From a virus (lineage: Duplodnaviria > Caudoviricetes): 34,690 bases of DNA. The notes beneath the pieces are model-generated. The model saw only the letters and a program-made list of their open reading frames with translations. It made no database searches and had not been told where the DNA came from. Both the position numbers and the translations under genes were made by a program. The stretch is from the IMG/VR virus record IMGVR_UViG_3300011339_000248, positions 1 through 34,690 of that record; one strand, given 5' to 3'. Shown in pieces: positions 2,400 to 34,690 of this stretch. How positions within the stretch are numbered: the first letter of the stretch is position 1; every line of letters begins with the position of its first letter.

Positions 2400-2565
2400 T
2401 GAACATTATGAAGTTCAAAGATACGAATACAAATCCTATATTTAAACTCTTATGTAGTTCACCAAATTCATCTACTGAATAGCCTATTGAAATACCTAAT
2501 TGAATAGTTTCAGTTAATACCCCTAATGATATTCTAAAGCTACCAAATTGAAAATAGTATTCCAT
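2383..2565 (-). CDS. Hypothetical beta-rich hydrophobic protein
   Basis: 60-aa ORF overlapping both neighbours. Confidence 0.55.
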   Translation of the reverse strand: MEYYFQFGSFRISLGVLTETIQLGISIGYSVDEFGELHKSLNIGFVFVSLNFIMFNEETH

Positions 2566-3293
2566 TACTTGTCTATTTGTTTTAGCTTATTTATTGCCCA
2601 TTCAATACCTGAAGTGCCACCCCAAGCATCCCACATTAGACCACCACAACCTTCAGAATAAGGGACATCTTTACTTTGCTGATGTCTTTTAAATGATGCC
2701 ATCCTAGCTATTGTATCCCTAGATATATTTTCTTTATTTGCTAATTGATTTGCCCTAGCTTTACCTACTGCAGTTCCACATTCACCCCAACCATTTTCTT
2801 CTGCCCATTTCAATGCCCTTTTTGCATTGTTACTAGCAGATTCAGGATAGTCATTATAACTTTCTTGTAACTCAAATTTAACACCTCTAGCCTTTGGTAA
2901 AGCATTTACTTCTTTTATAACATCAGGATTATTGTCAGTATGTATTTCTATACCTAATGAATTAATTTTTTCTACCTTAGCTTTATTAGAACCTGTTGCA
3001 TAAACTCTATCTGCAGGAATGCCTAAATATTTTGCAGTACCTAACATAGATTCTTTATCACCTCTAGCTGAAATAATATAAACTAATTCACCTGCTGCAA
3101 TATCCCTTTTAGCTTTATCTTTACCTGCCTCTGTACTTAATACACCATCATAATCATAGCTTACTTTTTTAGCAGCATATTTGCCACTAGCTAAAATAGC
3201 TGCCCATACTTCTGCAGCCTTTTCGTGTGTGTCATAAACGCAACTACCTGTACCTATTCTGTACTTACCATTGCTACATTTGTATATCGGCAT
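2565..3293 (-). CDS. Tri-modular protein with central HAD-like phosphatase domain, probably head-associated
   Basis: SYDYDGVL (motif I), IISAR (II), K (III), HTDNN (IV); C-terminal module ending WDAWGG..G..WA. Confidence 0.65.
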   Translation of the reverse strand: MPIYKCSNGKYRIGTGSCVYDTHEKAAEVWAAILASGKYAAKKVSYDYDGVLSTEAGKDKAKRDIAAGELVYIISARGDKESMLGTAKYLGIPADRVYATGSNKAKVEKINSLGIEIHTDNNPDVIKEVNALPKARGVKFELQESYNDYPESASNNAKRALKWAEENGWGECGTAVGKARANQLANKENISRDTIARMASFKRHQQSKDVPYSEGCGGLMWDAWGGTSGIEWAINKLKQIDK

Positions 3294-4284
3294 TCCCTAT
3301 CAATTTATTATAAATAGCAAATCTTCTATTATTTATTGTGTGCAGGTTATAGTTGGTATTACAGTAATCAAATAGCTTCTGCCCATATTCCATTCTAGCT
3401 GCTTCATCAAAGGTCAATAGCTTTATCCATTTGTACCAATCCTGTTGGTTATTTACATAGCATACAGGCATATCTTTATAAGGATGCACGTTGCTAACTA
3501 TAGCAGGGTTTTTCTTAGATGCAGTTTCTAATACCTTTAGATTAGATTTCATTGCAGAGAATTTATTATCTACCAAAGGAATTATACTTATATCAGAATC
3601 AGCATAAGCACCCATATATTTACTAATTTCTGCATAATCATAAATAGTTGGATTAAGTTTCAATCCATTAGTGAATACCCCAATCATTCTATCCCATAGA
3701 TGTTTTTCCCCTAGATTATATCCTGCAATAACAGTTCTTACAGGGAAGTTAATCTTCTTCATTGGGTTACGCAATATATCTAAATCAGGAACGTGCGTAC
3801 CTGACCCTGACCAAAATAATCTAACCAAATCAGATTCTAATTTATTATCTTGGAACTGTTCCTCACCATATGGTAAAGCATTAGGGATTATTTCTACGTT
3901 TGTATTAAACTGATATATTTCTTCTGCAAGTCTTTCGTGTGTACAGGTGCAAAGGTCTGCCACTCGCATATATTCTGTTATGATATCTGTGATATTGCTT
4001 TCTCTATATCTTTGTGCTAGAACGTGCGAAGGTGGTAAAATCCAATAATCATCATTGTCTACTATTAATTTAAAGTTGTATTTAATCTTCATCTTTACTA
4101 ATAGTTTAGCATCAGTTGAAGCTAAGAATCTATTAAATAAAACTATGTCATAGTTATTATCAAATACTGCTTCATTTATTGTATCAGTTATCATACAATA
4201 GTCTTTGCGCATATTAACTAATGGCATCATAATCCTATGATAGCCAACCCCACTAAATTTATTTGTAATTGCTAGTATTCTCAT
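3274..4284 (-). CDS. Glycosyltransferase, GT-B fold (GT4-like)
   Basis: SGVGYHRI..P, D.DD, IIPNALP, DISIIPL..N.F...KSNLKVLE. Confidence 0.85.
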   Translation of the reverse strand: MRILAITNKFSGVGYHRIMMPLVNMRKDYCMITDTINEAVFDNNYDIVLFNRFLASTDAKLLVKMKIKYNFKLIVDNDDYWILPPSHVLAQRYRESNITDIITEYMRVADLCTCTHERLAEEIYQFNTNVEIIPNALPYGEEQFQDNKLESDLVRLFWSGSGTHVPDLDILRNPMKKINFPVRTVIAGYNLGEKHLWDRMIGVFTNGLKLNPTIYDYAEISKYMGAYADSDISIIPLVDNKFSAMKSNLKVLETASKKNPAIVSNVHPYKDMPVCYVNNQQDWYKWIKLLTFDEAARMEYGQKLFDYCNTNYNLHTINNRRFAIYNKLIGNADIQM

Positions 4285-4862
4285 AATGGCATATAGTATG
4301 CTTTAGTTCCGTTTGTATAATCTGATACGTTCTTATTGTGTAAGTCCCAAGTCTTTTTTACTAAGTCCATTTTATTATATCCATAGGCATCTGCTCCGTT
4401 CTGCTCTATATGTGTAGCTTTAGTAGATGGAATGAATTTAGTATGCAATCCTGCTGCCCTGCATCTAGTACAGTAATCTAAGTCTATTGCTCCATATGGG
4501 TCTAATTCCTCGTTAAATGCGCCTATCCTATTTATTGCTTCTTTTGATATTGTAAAGTTCCCAATCAAATCTAATGAATCACCGTTAAATCCATTTAATG
4601 GTATTGAGCATATGCCTATGGTATTATCCTGCATAAATTCATTCCTAGTTAATAACCAATTATCAGGCTCTAGTATATCATTGCCCATTATGGTTACATA
4701 ATCTATATTATTTAATTGCATTAATCCTTTATTGATTGCATATGCAATACCTGTTTCATCAATTATGCTAATTAAGTCTATGTGCTTACCTGCATTTTTA
4801 ATGTTATGAAACAAAGTTTCAATGTTTCTACTTTGGTAGTTTAAATATATTACTGCGTTCAT
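4281..4862 (-). CDS. Glycosyltransferase family 2-like
   Basis: GIAYAINKG, MGND, IGAFNE.L..YG..DLDYC.R. Confidence 0.8.
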   Translation of the reverse strand: MNAVIYLNYQSRNIETLFHNIKNAGKHIDLISIIDETGIAYAINKGLMQLNNIDYVTIMGNDILEPDNWLLTRNEFMQDNTIGICSIPLNGFNGDSLDLIGNFTISKEAINRIGAFNEELDPYGAIDLDYCTRCRAAGLHTKFIPSTKATHIEQNGADAYGYNKMDLVKKTWDLHNKNVSDYTNGTKAYYMPL

Positions 4863-5341
4863 CTAGGTTTGTTTTCTCCTAATTTTCTTGCAGGTACTCC
4901 TGCATATTTTGTATATGGTTCTGATTCCCCTTTAAAGAATGCACTTGCACCAATCATACAACCTTCATTAATTACACTAAACTGATGCAATACTGCATTA
5001 AGTCCTATGTTTGAATTTTGCATAATAGTAGAATGCCCTCCTATCTTTGCTCCGCAACTTATTGTAACATTAGATAATATCTTGCAATCGTGTCCTATAT
5101 GAGAATGCTTCATAATATAACAATTATGCGCAATCATTGTGGTATCTGTTGTACCTGCATCTATTGTAACCAATCCTGTAATAATATTATTATCCCCTAT
5201 AAATACTTTGCCCTTTGGCTTGTCCCAATACCTTTTATGTTCTGCAGGGTCGCCTATAATACAATAAGCACCTATATAATTGTTATCCCCTAGTATAACA
5301 TTATCCCCTATTATTGCAGTTGGATGTATATAATTAGCCAT
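4859..5341 (-). CDS. Hexapeptide-repeat acyltransferase (LpxA/NeuD-like)
   Basis: IHPTAIIG, HIGHDC, GGH, terminal GVPAR; left-handed beta-helix repeats. Confidence 0.9.
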   Translation of the reverse strand: MANYIHPTAIIGDNVILGDNNYIGAYCIIGDPAEHKRYWDKPKGKVFIGDNNIITGLVTIDAGTTDTTMIAHNCYIMKHSHIGHDCKILSNVTISCGAKIGGHSTIMQNSNIGLNAVLHQFSVINEGCMIGASAFFKGESEPYTKYAGVPARKLGENKPR

Positions 5342-22612: not shown

Positions 22613-23218
22613 TTATTTGTTTAAAATTGCGTTTCTATATTTCTCCAATCTTTCATATTTACTATCATTAGTAGTTACATAAGATTGAAATGCGTTTGCT
22701 GCTTTTTGAGTAGGCTCTGCAGTTGGGGTGTTTGAAAGTGCTTCTACTAATTCAGCTACTTGTGCAAAACCTTGTTTTACTTTGCTTTCTAATTCAGCAA
22801 TTTTTGCTTCTAATTGACTTTTTTGCTCTGCAAATTCAGCCTTTAATTCTTCAGCCATAGCAGTTGTGTCTTGTGCAGGTGGAACAGGTGCAGCAGGTGC
22901 TTCAGGTTCTACTTCTACAACATCAGACTTAGGTGTAGAAATTTCTACGATTGTACCTAATTCATCAACTACAATAGATGTACCATCCATTAATTGATGC
23001 TCACCTGCAGGAGCAGGACTACCATCAGCCATTTGTACCATACCACCTAATTCTAAAGCAGAAATCATAACTTTTGTTCCATCTACTAAAGAATATTCAG
23101 CCATTTCTACCTTTGTTACTTCAGGCACTTCAGGTGCAACAGGAGCAACAGGCTCAACAACTAGTGGCATTTCTTCAAATAATGCTTTTATTTGCTTTAA
23201 TGCTTCTTTTGGATTCAT
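22613..23218 (-). CDS. Capsid scaffolding protein
   Basis: Acidic, Pro/Ala-rich, L.DGT repeats, coiled-coil C-terminus; precedes capsid. Confidence 0.75.
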   Translation of the reverse strand: MNPKEALKQIKALFEEMPLVVEPVAPVAPEVPEVTKVEMAEYSLVDGTKVMISALELGGMVQMADGSPAPAGEHQLMDGTSIVVDELGTIVEISTPKSDVVEVEPEAPAAPVPPAQDTTAMAEELKAEFAEQKSQLEAKIAELESKVKQGFAQVAELVEALSNTPTAEPTQKAANAFQSYVTTNDSKYERLEKYRNAILNK

Positions 23219-23262: not shown

Positions 23263-23353
23263 TAACCGCTTATCCTTATTATTTACCGTTCATCATATTT
23301 CTAAAAAAAAGTGGTCAAATGTTTGGAATATGTACAGAACCTGTGTATATTTG
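23263..23353 (+). promoter_or_regulatory. Bacteroidota-type promoter with upstream double box
   Basis: TTTG(23322)-N20-TATATTTG; TTACCGTTCATCA at 23283 and degenerate copy at 23263. Confidence 0.85.
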
Positions 23354-23390: not shown

Positions 23391-23492
23391 ATGAACCACA
23401 AAATTTTGCCTCCCCCATTAGAAGTTAAATTGTTCCTTTATTTAATAGGAGCAGCTTTCTTTAGCGTTTTAATCCAATTATTAATCAAATAA
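23391..23492 (+). CDS. Small membrane peptide (33 aa)
   Basis: MNHKILPPPLEVKLFLYLIGAAFFSVLIQLLIK; first ORF after promoter, A-rich leader. Confidence 0.6.
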   Translation: MNHKILPPPLEVKLFLYLIGAAFFSVLIQLLIK

Positions 23493-23501
23493 ATATAAAC
23501 T

Positions 23502-24077
23502 ATGAAAAATCTAATTGAAAAGTATGAAAGTTTGGGATTTCATTTGAATGCCCAAGAATCACCAATGGTTGTTGCCTATTGTGTTAGAAAGGTTAGTAAA
23601 GCTAGATTCAAAAAGCCTTTATTTAACTACAGATTTAGAACTGCTGAAAGAATGGCTGAATTCTGTATGGAATGGATTGAAAAAGTAGAAAGAAATATCA
23701 ATGCAGAGAAAGCTAGAAAAGAGCAAAAGAAGATTGCTCAACAGAATATGAATCACAATTATAAGGTTGGTCAGGTTCTTTACAACAGTTGGGGTTATGA
23801 CCAAACTAACATTAACTTCTATCAGGTTATTGAAGTTAAAGAAAAATCAATAATTTTGCAAGAAGTTTGTAAAAGCATTGTTGCAGGGTCTGAAGGGTTT
23901 ATGTCTGCTCGTGTTAAGCCTGTTGAAAATGCCTTTATTGGAGAACCAATCCTAAAAAAAGTAGTTGTTTCAGTTGGTTACAATGGGAATGTTGGTTACT
24001 ACATCAAAGCAAAGCACGGTTGCTTCTGCGAATATTCCGAGAATCAACAAGGTGTTTACAGTAGTTGGTATGCTTAA
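23502..24077 (+). CDS. Hypothetical early phage protein
   Basis: 191 aa; VG..LY.SWGYDQTN..FYQV motif. Confidence 0.8.
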   Translation: MKNLIEKYESLGFHLNAQESPMVVAYCVRKVSKARFKKPLFNYRFRTAERMAEFCMEWIEKVERNINAEKARKEQKKIAQQNMNHNYKVGQVLYNSWGYDQTNINFYQVIEVKEKSIILQEVCKSIVAGSEGFMSARVKPVENAFIGEPILKKVVVSVGYNGNVGYYIKAKHGCFCEYSENQQGVYSSWYA

Positions 24078-24087
24078 TTAAATTAAA

Positions 24088-24612
24088 ATGAATAAAATAA
24101 AATATAACTCACTTGCTCTAGCTGCTGAATACCACAAGTATCAGCAGTATGGGGTTAAGCCTTACTTAGACCATTTATTAAACGTATGGTATGAAGCAGA
24201 AAAGTTCTGTAATGAAAACAATATCAAAGGAATTAAATTAGATATAATCCTTTCTGTGTGTGCATTGCACGATACTTTAGAAGATACTACATTAGATGAA
24301 AATAAAATCAAGCTAATACACAAAGAAGTTTATAATAGTGTTAAGCTATTAACTAAGAAGCCACCATTAAATAAATACTATATTGAAATTGCTAAAAATG
24401 AAATAGCATCTATAGTTAAATTGTGTGATAGAATATGCAATATCAGAGAATGTATTAAGAACAAAGACTACCGTAAATTAAAAAAGTATATAAATGAATC
24501 TAATAAATTCAAGGTTATATACTCTGATTTTAATAAGCCATTATCTAATAAATTAGAAAGACTTTATTTTAAAGGGAAGCTAATTAGTATTTTTCGTATT
24601 GCTCTTTACTAA
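24088..24612 (+). CDS. HD-domain small alarmone hydrolase (Mesh1/SAH/Aph1-like)
   Basis: A..YH..Q.YG..PY..H...V, ALHDTLEDT, V.LLTK, VKLCDR..N. Confidence 0.9.
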   Translation: MNKIKYNSLALAAEYHKYQQYGVKPYLDHLLNVWYEAEKFCNENNIKGIKLDIILSVCALHDTLEDTTLDENKIKLIHKEVYNSVKLLTKKPPLNKYYIEIAKNEIASIVKLCDRICNIRECIKNKDYRKLKKYINESNKFKVIYSDFNKPLSNKLERLYFKGKLISIFRIALY

Positions 24613-24802
24613 TAACATTACCTTCTAAAAATGCCTGCGTTAATGGTTCTGAACCAATTTCTATTGAATATGGCTTACCACCTTTTAATTTAGCTTCATA
24701 CCCACCATCAGGAATGCTTTTAAAAGCTACCCCATCAAATGAATTAAGAAAGTAAACTTCATTACCTGAAGCTAAAAGATTTAATAACTCTGTGTGTTTC
24801 AT
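24584..24802 (-). CDS. Small protein, candidate immunity factor
   Basis: 72 aa directly downstream of the synthetase domain; TATATTTG at 24806-24813. Confidence 0.65.
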   Translation of the reverse strand: MKHTELLNLLASGNEVYFLNSFDGVAFKSIPDGGYEAKLKGGKPYSIEIGSEPLTQAFLEGNVISKEQYEKY

Positions 24803-24828
24803 AATCAAATATAATTAATTTTCTTGAA

Positions 24829-26094
24829 TTACCCTCTAAAATTCTTATAATATTCTTTAGATTTATTTGCAATTTCAGCCATTTTAGCGGCATCTTTTTT
24901 AGGGTCTAGTATTCTATATTCCTCATATAATTTATGCCCTAGACCGCCTTCTTTGCCTGTTTGCTTTGCTATTTGATTGTATTTATCATTACCTAATATT
25001 GCCTTAGCTGATGCTGCACTTTCTTTAGCATAAATCATTTTAGCACTATTTACCTGAACTTCACCTATTAATCCATTACTCATTCTGACATTTGCAATAG
25101 TTCCACTATAACCTAATGGGTCAGAATCAGCAACCTGAACCTTAACTCTTAATGTATTAGGGTTATCTGCTAAATCTTTTATGGCTGATTGTATACCTTG
25201 TTCATTATCTATTATAACTGTATTTCTTACCGAATCTTTTAATTCGTTTACATTACCACCATAATCATTATTCACCTTTCTAGTGATAGATTCCTCTGAT
25301 TTATAATTTAATGGGGTAACTACACCACCGTATTTTGATGCTAAGTCATTACCTAACTTATCTATTTCACCGCCTGTCTGCCTTGCTTTATCCATTACAT
25401 TTTTTACATCTTCTTTGCTCACATTGATTTTAGAAGCAGGTGCATTTTTAGAACTTTCTTTACTACTACCGCCTTCAGGTCTGCGACCACTACCAACCCC
25501 ACCTAATTCAACTTCTTCTAGGATTTTATAGATTTCATTCATCACCTGTTGTTCTTTAGAAACTAAAGGTGCATAGTTAAATATTCCTTCAATAGAAAAT
25601 CCATTAACCATCCCCTGCTTTACCTTGTCCCATACATCATCATTTTCTACTAGCATAGATACAAACCACGAACCATCAGGAGCATCTTCAAATCCTTTCA
25701 TTGGTTCAATACCTCTAGACTTATCACTAATGAAACTTTCAAACATTGTAACCCCTGTCTCAACTTGATTAGGGTCGTGCATCAAGTTAACATTATTCTG
25801 ATAGCCTTTCTTAAAATATTTCTGAACAATCTTTGTAATAGTGTCTTTAGAAAAAGCAACATAGTAATCCCCAAAAGTAGCATCACTTCTAAAAATAGGA
25901 GTGTCAGCCAACATAGCGCAACCACTGATGATGCGCTTATCTTCACTAATAATTTGAAACTTCTGTTCATTTTTAAACGCATTCCAATTCTTTTGAATGG
26001 CAGGTCTATCTACTAATGAAACGAATTGCACCTCTGCATCATCATTCAGGTCATCAGATATTTCCAACATATATAAAGGTAATTCCATACTCAT
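24829..26094 (-). CDS. XkdF-type prohead protease fused to RelA/SpoT-family nucleotidyltransferase (alarmone synthetase) domain
   Basis: N-term SLVDRPAI, N.MH, GSWF, GFSIEG; linker GGVGSGRRP; C-term KSEESITRK, DSVRNT, GYSG, EVQVN. Confidence 0.85.
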   Translation of the reverse strand: MSMELPLYMLEISDDLNDDAEVQFVSLVDRPAIQKNWNAFKNEQKFQIISEDKRIISGCAMLADTPIFRSDATFGDYYVAFSKDTITKIVQKYFKKGYQNNVNLMHDPNQVETGVTMFESFISDKSRGIEPMKGFEDAPDGSWFVSMLVENDDVWDKVKQGMVNGFSIEGIFNYAPLVSKEQQVMNEIYKILEEVELGGVGSGRRPEGGSSKESSKNAPASKINVSKEDVKNVMDKARQTGGEIDKLGNDLASKYGGVVTPLNYKSEESITRKVNNDYGGNVNELKDSVRNTVIIDNEQGIQSAIKDLADNPNTLRVKVQVADSDPLGYSGTIANVRMSNGLIGEVQVNSAKMIYAKESAASAKAILGNDKYNQIAKQTGKEGGLGHKLYEEYRILDPKKDAAKMAEIANKSKEYYKNFRG

Positions 26095-33870: not shown

Positions 33871-33951
33871 CAAATATACAACCTGTAAACACATTATCCA
33901 AATATTTTACACACTTTGTGATGAACGGTAAAAATTAAGGATAAATGGTAA
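33871..33951 (-). promoter_or_regulatory. Bacteroidota-type promoter with double box
   Basis: TTTG-N20-TATATTTG; boxes at 33919 and 33939 (degenerate); same promoter repeated at 57-88. Confidence 0.85.
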
Positions 33952-34583: not shown

Positions 34584-34690
34584 TTAAACGAATGAATACC
34601 TTCCATTACCCCTTTTCATATTGTAATTATTCCAAGTCAAAGCCAATGCCATTACACAGTCATCGTGAAATCCACTAGGCGCAGAATACT
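34545..34690. repeat. Terminal overlap with 99-244 (circularisation)
   Basis: 146-bp match with one mismatch; repeats the terL 3' end. Confidence 0.95.

Follow-up and report, generated by a model that had tools for sequence, protein, structure and literature searches.

MuF polymorphic toxins of phages join a conserved N-terminal head protein to a variable C-terminal toxin, and toxin-free short forms and small neighbour genes accompany them (PMC5576092, PMC3482391). RelA-like enzymes and zeta kinases are both known MuF payloads in this literature, and MuF toxins have been reported almost only in temperate phages. In the MuF-Apk2/IapK/Aph1 system, a head-module gene ends in a Tas1-like synthetase, the gene for a Tis1-fold inhibitor (IapK, or BcTis1) lies directly downstream and an HD hydrolase gene comes next; the inhibitors are allele-specific, the hydrolase less so (PMC10083569, PMC12226406). 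Here we describe a locus with the same three parts in the Caudoviricetes record IMGVR_UViG_3300011339_000248, which is rated 100% complete and whose entire 34,690 nucleotides (nt) we refer to as the window. Unlike MuF-Apk2 as so far described, the carrier in this locus is an XkdF-type prohead protease, the predicted hydrolase does not carry the Aph1 signature, its gene lies antisense behind a host-type promoter site of its own, and no integrase was found. The N-terminal domain differs from MuF and is one by which the payload could be released.

T4 internal proteins and Alt are processed by gp21. As is predicted for the toxin considered here, they are head-packaged, injected effectors that the prohead protease trims at a phage-specific residue; unlike it, they are separate proteins with N-terminal targeting peptides and have no cognate antidote genes. 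Head packaging of Alt is covered in PMC5512222, which also describes polyvalent proteins that end in an assemblin-like peptidase, and a Nudix domain fused to a head-processing peptidase has been reported (PMC9503650). Both papers share with the present locus the idea that a maturation peptidase carries enzymes into the head; in the available portions of their text, no toxin-immunity module, alarmone synthetase on the peptidase or swappable cassette is described.

Results

A prohead protease fused to a Tas1/Apk-type synthetase

A first-pass annotation of the window had proposed three adjacent open reading frames (ORFs): an XkdF-type protease joined by a linker to an alarmone synthetase, a 72-amino-acid (aa) candidate immunity protein and a convergent alarmone hydrolase. 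All three lie where they had been placed (Table 1). We compared them with relatives of the protease gene, which were found on 528 viral stretches; the counts of loci given below rest on the best 80 of these. In addition, the best 120 of 413 longer homologues were classified by payload, and the best 150 of 4,996 representatives were looked at for further fusions. The 80 viral loci are kin, and their counts do not represent independent events.

The N-terminal part of the fusion protein matches Pfam Peptidase_S78_2/XkdF at residues 49–171 (E 4e-16), and Pfam and PHROG together assign residues 11–189 to an XkdF protease. His106 and Ser167 are invariant across 23 aligned fusions, and scaffold and capsid genes adjoin, as expected of a prohead protease. 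Residues 185–223 are of low confidence in the structure model (predicted local distance difference test, pLDDT, below 50), as a linker would be. By sequence, the C-terminal ~200 aa match Tas1 (PDB 6OX6_A) with an E-value of 6e-41, and a fold search with the synthetase model returned Tas1 first (template modelling score, TM, 0.87 on the target, root mean square deviation, rmsd, 2.1 Å, 42% identity, E 3e-17). The locus shares its toxin and inhibitor folds with Tas1/Tis1 (Apk1) of Pseudomonas aeruginosa; unlike the present protein, Tas1 is delivered by a PAAR/type VI secretion system. The earlier expectation of a RelA/SpoT-homologue fold, of the Tas1/Apk rather than the RelA type, was thereby borne out. 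The next alarmone synthetases by fold score 2e-6 or weaker, and a RelA-like (p)ppGpp enzyme was rejected as nearest kin on this difference. Pfam RelA_SpoT gave no score on the window's fusion protein at E <= 0.01 and stayed below its cut-off on two relatives. A match to the head-morphogenesis family PHROG 7625 is confined to residues 227–404, and an N-terminal MuF domain is absent by Pfam and PHROG.

The synthetase domain has the Apk-type motifs RxT in syn2, GYSG and E.Q.N, and its four synthetase motifs are kept in 70, 69, 70 and 63 of the 70 Apk fusions among the longer homologues. Of the Tas1 active-site residues listed in PMC12691689, R330, E382 and the neighbouring Gln align with R290, E345 and Q347 of the fusion; Tas1 K353 is replaced by Arg and N370 by Ile. 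The Asn that PMC12226406 names in the syn3 GxN motif is Ile in the fusion; by eye, the active Bacteroides caccae Apk2 (PMC12691689) has the same motif set and likewise Ile at the place of Tas1 N370. Because R330, E382 and the Gln are kept and the active B. caccae enzyme shares the Ile, the product of the synthetase is likely (p)ppApp. An assembly chimera or chance read-through was rejected as the origin of the frame, since the same fusion occurs in 27 of the 80 loci and in 70 of the 120 longer homologues.

A Tis1/IapK-type inhibitor candidate

The 72-aa ORF directly follows the toxin gene and overlaps the convergent HD gene by 29 nt. Its first-pass reading as an immunity candidate gained support from homologues and fold. 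Pfam Tis1_ImmP (PF24154) matches all six scanned homologues, one of them above the cut-off (28.5 bits versus 27), and the model of the ORF (pLDDT 93) has Tis1 (6OX6_B) as top fold match (TM 0.71, rmsd 1.4, E 9e-3). Searching PDB by sequence with the 72-aa alignment did not find Tis1, the link being given by homologues and fold alone. A profile of the 72-aa family also matched the ORF that follows an Apk gene in a gut-phage locus, L254 (probability 90.5). In a model of the toxin–inhibitor complex, ipSAE reached 0.88 versus 0.00 for the best control, with contacts agreeing to at least 98% and partner pLDDT of at least 92; among test pairs, the mark applied is passed by 116 of 157 that are solved and by 2 of 215 that are mismatched. 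Passing it may reflect likeness to the solved Tas1–Tis1 pair. These models and matches support the assignment of the 72-aa ORF as a candidate Tis1/IapK-type inhibitor.

Payload and neighbour genes change together

As had been anticipated for the C-termini behind the linker, homologous proteases carry different payloads. Apk is the payload at 27 of the 80 loci and a zeta kinase (Pfam E 1e-29; PDB zeta E 5e-4) at 15; a further two have a 110-aa domain of unknown kind, and 36 have none. In these protease-only loci (35 intact, one split), the gene consists of the protease part alone, and where the toxin is lacking the scaffold gene follows 40–50 nt after the protease. The 120 longer homologues divide into 70 Apk and 50 zeta fusions. 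Neighbouring genes change with the payload: the inhibitor and HD genes accompany Apk in 26 of 26 loci with downstream DNA (the 27th, L022, stops inside the gene) and occur in none of the 15 zeta and none of the 38 other loci, while the HD slot of all 15 zeta loci, and of no other locus, holds an antisense ORF of 56–57 aa. Since the HD gene is found only with Apk and is replaced with zeta, it is marked as payload-specific. The Apk layout is kept in five distant loci (protease identity 58–62%). The group has two hallmarks of polymorphic toxins, a constant N-terminal carrier with variable C-terminal domains and an immunity gene that changes with the toxin.

Comparison of 19 non-identical loci revealed that toxin and inhibitor swap together. 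In L005–L009, the protease is 97–99% identical to that of the window and the HD protein 88–94%, with Apk at 52–56% and the inhibitor at 54–58%; in L004 the order is reversed, with 70% for the protease, 68% for HD, 87% for Apk and 81% for the inhibitor. Mantel correlations were 0.87 for Apk and inhibitor, 0.22 for inhibitor and protease and 0.67 for Apk and HD. A protease tree was built from 62 distinct domains, with partial and identical rows left out; its long branches are unsure. It requires 11 gains or losses of Apk, at least five of them forced by starred branches.

Several observations bear on how widely such payloads occur. When the Apk domain was scanned by itself, five close loci came up, all of the window's group, and two protease–Apk fusions among the 150 representatives, P0179 and P0189, use another short tag. 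Many of these 150 proteases carry inserted modules, often starting after a Phe by eye. One recurrent module of ~95 aa (PHROG 2859) stands before or after the protease domain in many distant relatives (P0180, P0183, P0188, L202, L214 and L222); this family also has a match in the window outside the protease gene, in the ORF at 2565–3293(−) near the terminase gene. The 56–57 aa ORF of the zeta loci (for example L031:1807–1977(−)) is a candidate new zeta antitoxin. Tagged payloads also occur without neighbour genes, in L148:2229–2765(+), P0178 and P0224; we take residues of the L148/P0178 payload to recall the R-S-E motif of ADP-ribosyltransferases, and as Pfam, PHROG and PDB gave no support, it was left unassigned. 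In L254:2435–3843(+), the gut phage noted above, a standalone 204-aa Apk ORF has no carrier and is followed by IapK-like and Aph1-like genes.

A short tag marks the joint between carrier and payload

Every payload in the 80 loci begins after the motif GG.GSG, preceded by Leu, Phe or Met; the same three residues precede it in 119 of the 120 longer homologues. A pattern scan for this tag returned 102 viral loci. Unrelated phages have it as well, on portals, on further head proteases and on small proteins in tandem. By its distribution the linker is a putative general head-cargo tag. The residue before GG varies between phages (K, A, F, E) and is constant within a contig, in 7 of 8 de-duplicated multi-tag contigs and 87 of 88 pairs, an agreement that none of 100,000 shuffles reached. 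Among the intact protease-only genes, 13 of 35 end on Phe exactly at the joint. In T4-type phages, the maturation protease cuts at a phage-specific residue. Constancy of the residue in front of GG is what such a site should show, and we predict that the protease cuts here.

Five unrelated loci (L090, L101, L105, L087 and L158) have up to 11 tags in 6 kb, each after the same residue, which split head-region proteins into small modules. Tagged portals were found in L112, L115, L129, L136 and L144.

An antisense unit with a putative alarmone hydrolase

The HD gene is convergent to the toxin and inhibitor genes. Its single HD domain carries the small alarmone hydrolase (SAH)/Mesh1 motifs H..Q, PY..H, LHD..ED and K..DR..N, invariant in 10 of 10 aligned sequences. 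The best PDB matches are 6YVC, 6Z3N/O and MESH1, and the nearest solved relative has been described as acting on both alarmones. The Aph1 signature comprises D24, R96, D116, R119, K133 and Y134 (PMC10083569); by eye, the HD protein has two of the six (the KY pair) and a Tyr in place of D24, and membership in Aph1 was rejected on this signature. No chain named Aph1 was among its 10 PDB matches at E <= 10, and identity to the Aph1-like neighbour gene in L254 is 29% over 96 aa. The first-pass reading as an alarmone hydrolase held as to type; by signature the protein is not Aph1, and its gene turned out to lie on a separate antisense unit. From its motifs, the HD protein is predicted to be a phage SAH of a branch other than Aph1. 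Because its family stands alone in 197 phage records, the hydrolase looks separately recruited.

Upstream of the HD gene lie further parts that the first-pass annotation had missed: a 191-aa gene, a 33-aa peptide ORF and a promoter-like site. Each of the 41 toxin loci for which downstream sequence exists, Apk or zeta alike, has the 191-aa gene, and none of the 38 toxin-free loci does; relatives of its product occur in eight phage records, and library scans for its function gave no name. The promoter-like site follows the Bacteroidota consensus (PMC6847099). Of 42 cassettes, 41 have such a site at the equivalent position, and in 17 it is the exact consensus. The strict pattern has four matches in the window versus 1.3 expected by chance. 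Two of these four are identical and are the genome's other TTTGG-type sites; they stand at 57–88(−) and 33871–33902(−), within similar ~120-nt stretches near the window ends, and likely head early genes. The gene headed by one of them shares 53% identity with an optional member of the antisense unit. The ends have only this similar promoter-bearing stretch in common, an exact terminal repeat of the window being absent. A sigma-70 promoter scan was uninformative (16 sites versus 16.7 by chance). With a host-type promoter on the antisense unit, the hydrolase, or its zeta partner, would therefore be made by the host polymerase on entry, and we infer from the layout that this unit is early and that toxin and inhibitor are late. 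A single RNA run covered 5% of words, with short contigs that did not lie over the toxin, inhibitor or HD genes, and is uninformative on expression.

Phage context

Minus-strand genes of the window encode terminase, portal, capsid-like, tail-fibre, endolysin and ERF proteins; the 191-aa and HD genes are its two clear plus-strand genes. The host is likely a member of the Bacteroidota, because the nearest relatives of the protease are found in Nonlabens phages (38% identity, nearest cultured relatives) and Chitinophagaceae bins (66%, nearest bacterial-genome matches). In agreement with the first-pass annotation, no recognisable integrase was found: searches of the window for tyrosine integrase (PF00589) and serine recombinase/resolvase (PF07508, PF00239) were empty, as was that for tyrosine integrase in five of five near-complete relatives. 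An NCBIfam scan gave nothing meaningful. At 3274–5341(−), two glycosyltransferase-like genes and a hexapeptide acyltransferase gene adjoin the packaging genes, and a terminase C-terminal-like frame is open at 34584–34688.

Table 1. Features of the toxin cassette and its surroundings (window coordinates)
Feature	Position	Strand	Basis or remark
Likely scaffold gene	22613..23218	−	context
Bacteroidota housekeeping-type promoter site TTTG-N20-TATATTTG, head of antisense unit	23322..23353	+	consensus match
33-aa hydrophobic peptide ORF, first of antisense unit	23391..23492	+	several relatives have similar frames (by eye)
191-aa phage protein of unknown function	23502..24077	+	PHROG 37844
Predicted HD-domain small alarmone hydrolase, last gene of antisense unit	24088..24612	+	PHROG 990; nearest solved structure 6YVC
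Tis1/IapK-fold immunity protein candidate, 72 aa	24584..24802	− (toxin strand)	homologue Pfam, fold, complex model, profile
Fusion gene: XkdF-type prohead protease, tag and Apk-type synthetase, likely of (p)ppApp	24829..26094	−	421 aa; Pfam, PHROG, PDB, model
Tas1/Apk2-like synthetase domain, about aa 222–421	24832..25431	−	sequence and fold
GG.GSGR.PEGG tag, aa 198–209 = GGVGSGRRPEGG, directly after Leu197	25468..25503	−	predicted cut site and cargo joint
Protease part, aa 1–197	25504..26094	−	Pfam XkdF; His106, Ser167 invariant

Discussion

The identities of the domains, the pairing of toxins with neighbour genes, the swapping of payloads and the gene layout are established by these comparisons, and the protease is likely a new carrier, by which toxins would be brought into the virion. 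We consider it rather probable that the toxin is loaded into the head, blocked by the inhibitor in the producing cell and cut free at maturation, and that it leaves the head with the DNA and is then countered by an early antidote. The fusion would be expressed late, as part of the head operon; the Tis1-like protein, transcribed along with it, would bind it and shield the producing cell. Having entered the prohead, the protease would cut after Leu, Phe or Met (here at the Leu-Gly-Gly joint) and free a ~24 kDa fragment starting with the GG.GSG tag. Ejected with the DNA, this fragment would turn ATP/ADP into (p)ppApp and stall the new host, until the host-type promoter on the newly arrived genome drives the antisense unit; the HD hydrolase would then restore ATP/ADP, and infection could proceed. 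No antidote would be made where the toxin arrives without a working cassette, either as host defence has destroyed the DNA or as a mixed head has delivered a cassette-free genome. The zeta relatives would follow the same plan, with the 56–57 aa antitoxin candidate in the hydrolase slot.

A number of points weigh against this course of events. Activity, cleavage, presence in the virion and timing of transcription are predictions from the genes; Pfam grades XkdF proteolysis itself only as 'putative', and packaging and injection are called open even for MuF toxins (PMC10083569). The chief difficulty lies in the rates: known hydrolases turn over fewer than 1,000 per min versus 180,000 per min for Apk1 (PMC12691689), and being more than 100-fold slower, a hydrolase alone may not keep up, although B. 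caccae Apk2 is milder (PMC10083569). With its gap in the Aph1 signature and its standalone relatives, the HD protein also leaves its substrate not fixed. Its identity correlates with that of Apk (r 0.67) as well as with that of the protease (r 0.65), in part through common descent. For the inhibitor, the ORF of the window itself has no Pfam match at E <= 1. The constant residue before GG could have arisen from duplication of tags within a contig, which may explain the agreement; three of the seven concordant contigs are of the K type, and four with L171. As for the promoter, 4 of 100 shuffles reach four strict matches, and the relaxed pattern is low in information.

The toxin might instead act undelivered inside the producing cell, as a late toxin–antitoxin module for which the protease gene serves as site of insertion and expression. 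Such a module might abort co-infection by a phage whose protease or late transcription unleashes the toxin, or stabilise a carrier state. Toxin-linked neighbours and allele swapping suit any toxin–antitoxin module, virion delivery is here deduced from genes, and phage proteins are known to trigger toxic small alarmone synthetases such as CapRel (PMC12691689). However, the fusion would be needless for a purely intracellular module, yet all payloads stand in frame on a head protein, behind a tag that is also found on portals and tandem small proteins, and MuF head proteins carry enzymes of the same families; we regard this explanation as unlikely. Injection might alternatively serve a mild effect, a short pulse of (p)ppApp or (p)ppGpp that takes over the host or blunts ATP-dependent defences, with a hydrolase whose chief task is to clear host alarmones, which its standalone relatives may do too, and no lethal toxin–antidote logic. 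B. caccae Apk2 is bacteriostatic (PMC10083569), the HD family is common as a standalone gene in phages, with a nearest solved relative described as acting on both alarmones, and with no integrase found, poisoning its own host looks costly for the phage. This proposal shares synthesis, cutting and ejection of the fusion with the delivery course that we prefer; the restriction of HD to Apk loci (26/26 versus 0/53), with a different small ORF next to zeta, points instead to a payload-specific partner, and the diverging toxin–inhibitor alleles fit antagonism, which makes a mild effector quite unlikely in our view.

Could the phage be temperate by an unrecognised route, plasmid-like or through an unknown integrase? 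The antisense unit would then be an immunity moron of the lysogen, and the virion toxin a weapon of lysogens against non-lysogens, a model in print for MuF (PMC5576092). Distant relatives (~36–52% protease identity) do lie in long genome contigs of Chitinophaga, Ferruginibacter and Mucilaginibacter, and a prophage, too, could use a host promoter. Against this speak the empty integrase and recombinase searches described above and the bacterial-genome loci, none of 68 of which has the tag, Apk, zeta, inhibitor, HD or 191-aa gene. We hold this lysogen weapon to be very unlikely. Returning to delivery in the head with an early antidote, a further reading is possible, if doubtful: the cassette may be a toxin–antidote selfish element (as defined in PMC11601442) within a virus, in which heads are loaded with toxin and only cassette-bearing genomes make the antidote on entry. 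If true, it would kill cassette-free relatives in mixed heads as well as hosts that destroy the incoming DNA, and would be the phage counterpart of the maternal-toxin, zygotic-antidote elements of animals, built on a general protease-cut GG.GSG tag.

The first-pass annotation had regarded the carrier as undescribed. For a protease-borne toxin-immunity module this still stands: we found no description in the mostly open literature, although some could be listed in figures or supplements to PMC10083569 and to the surveys from 2017 and 2022, and the available supplementary lists of Apk1 homologues in PMC12691689 contain no XkdF, FSIEG, FSVEG or GGPGSG string. It does not extend to head peptidases with other effectors, which have been published. 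The function of head-borne phage toxins is itself open, and the Apk2 papers call packaging, injection and purpose unknown. The near-identical phages with Apk, zeta or nothing described here are natural controls for this question, and the layout, which sets apart an inhibitor made late and an antidote that appears to be early, yields a sharp timing prediction. The maturation protease would be added to the carriers of toxins, and such systems extended to phages without a detectable integrase. Finally, a short tag behind a phage-specific cut residue may route cargo into heads and could be useful for protein delivery by phage.

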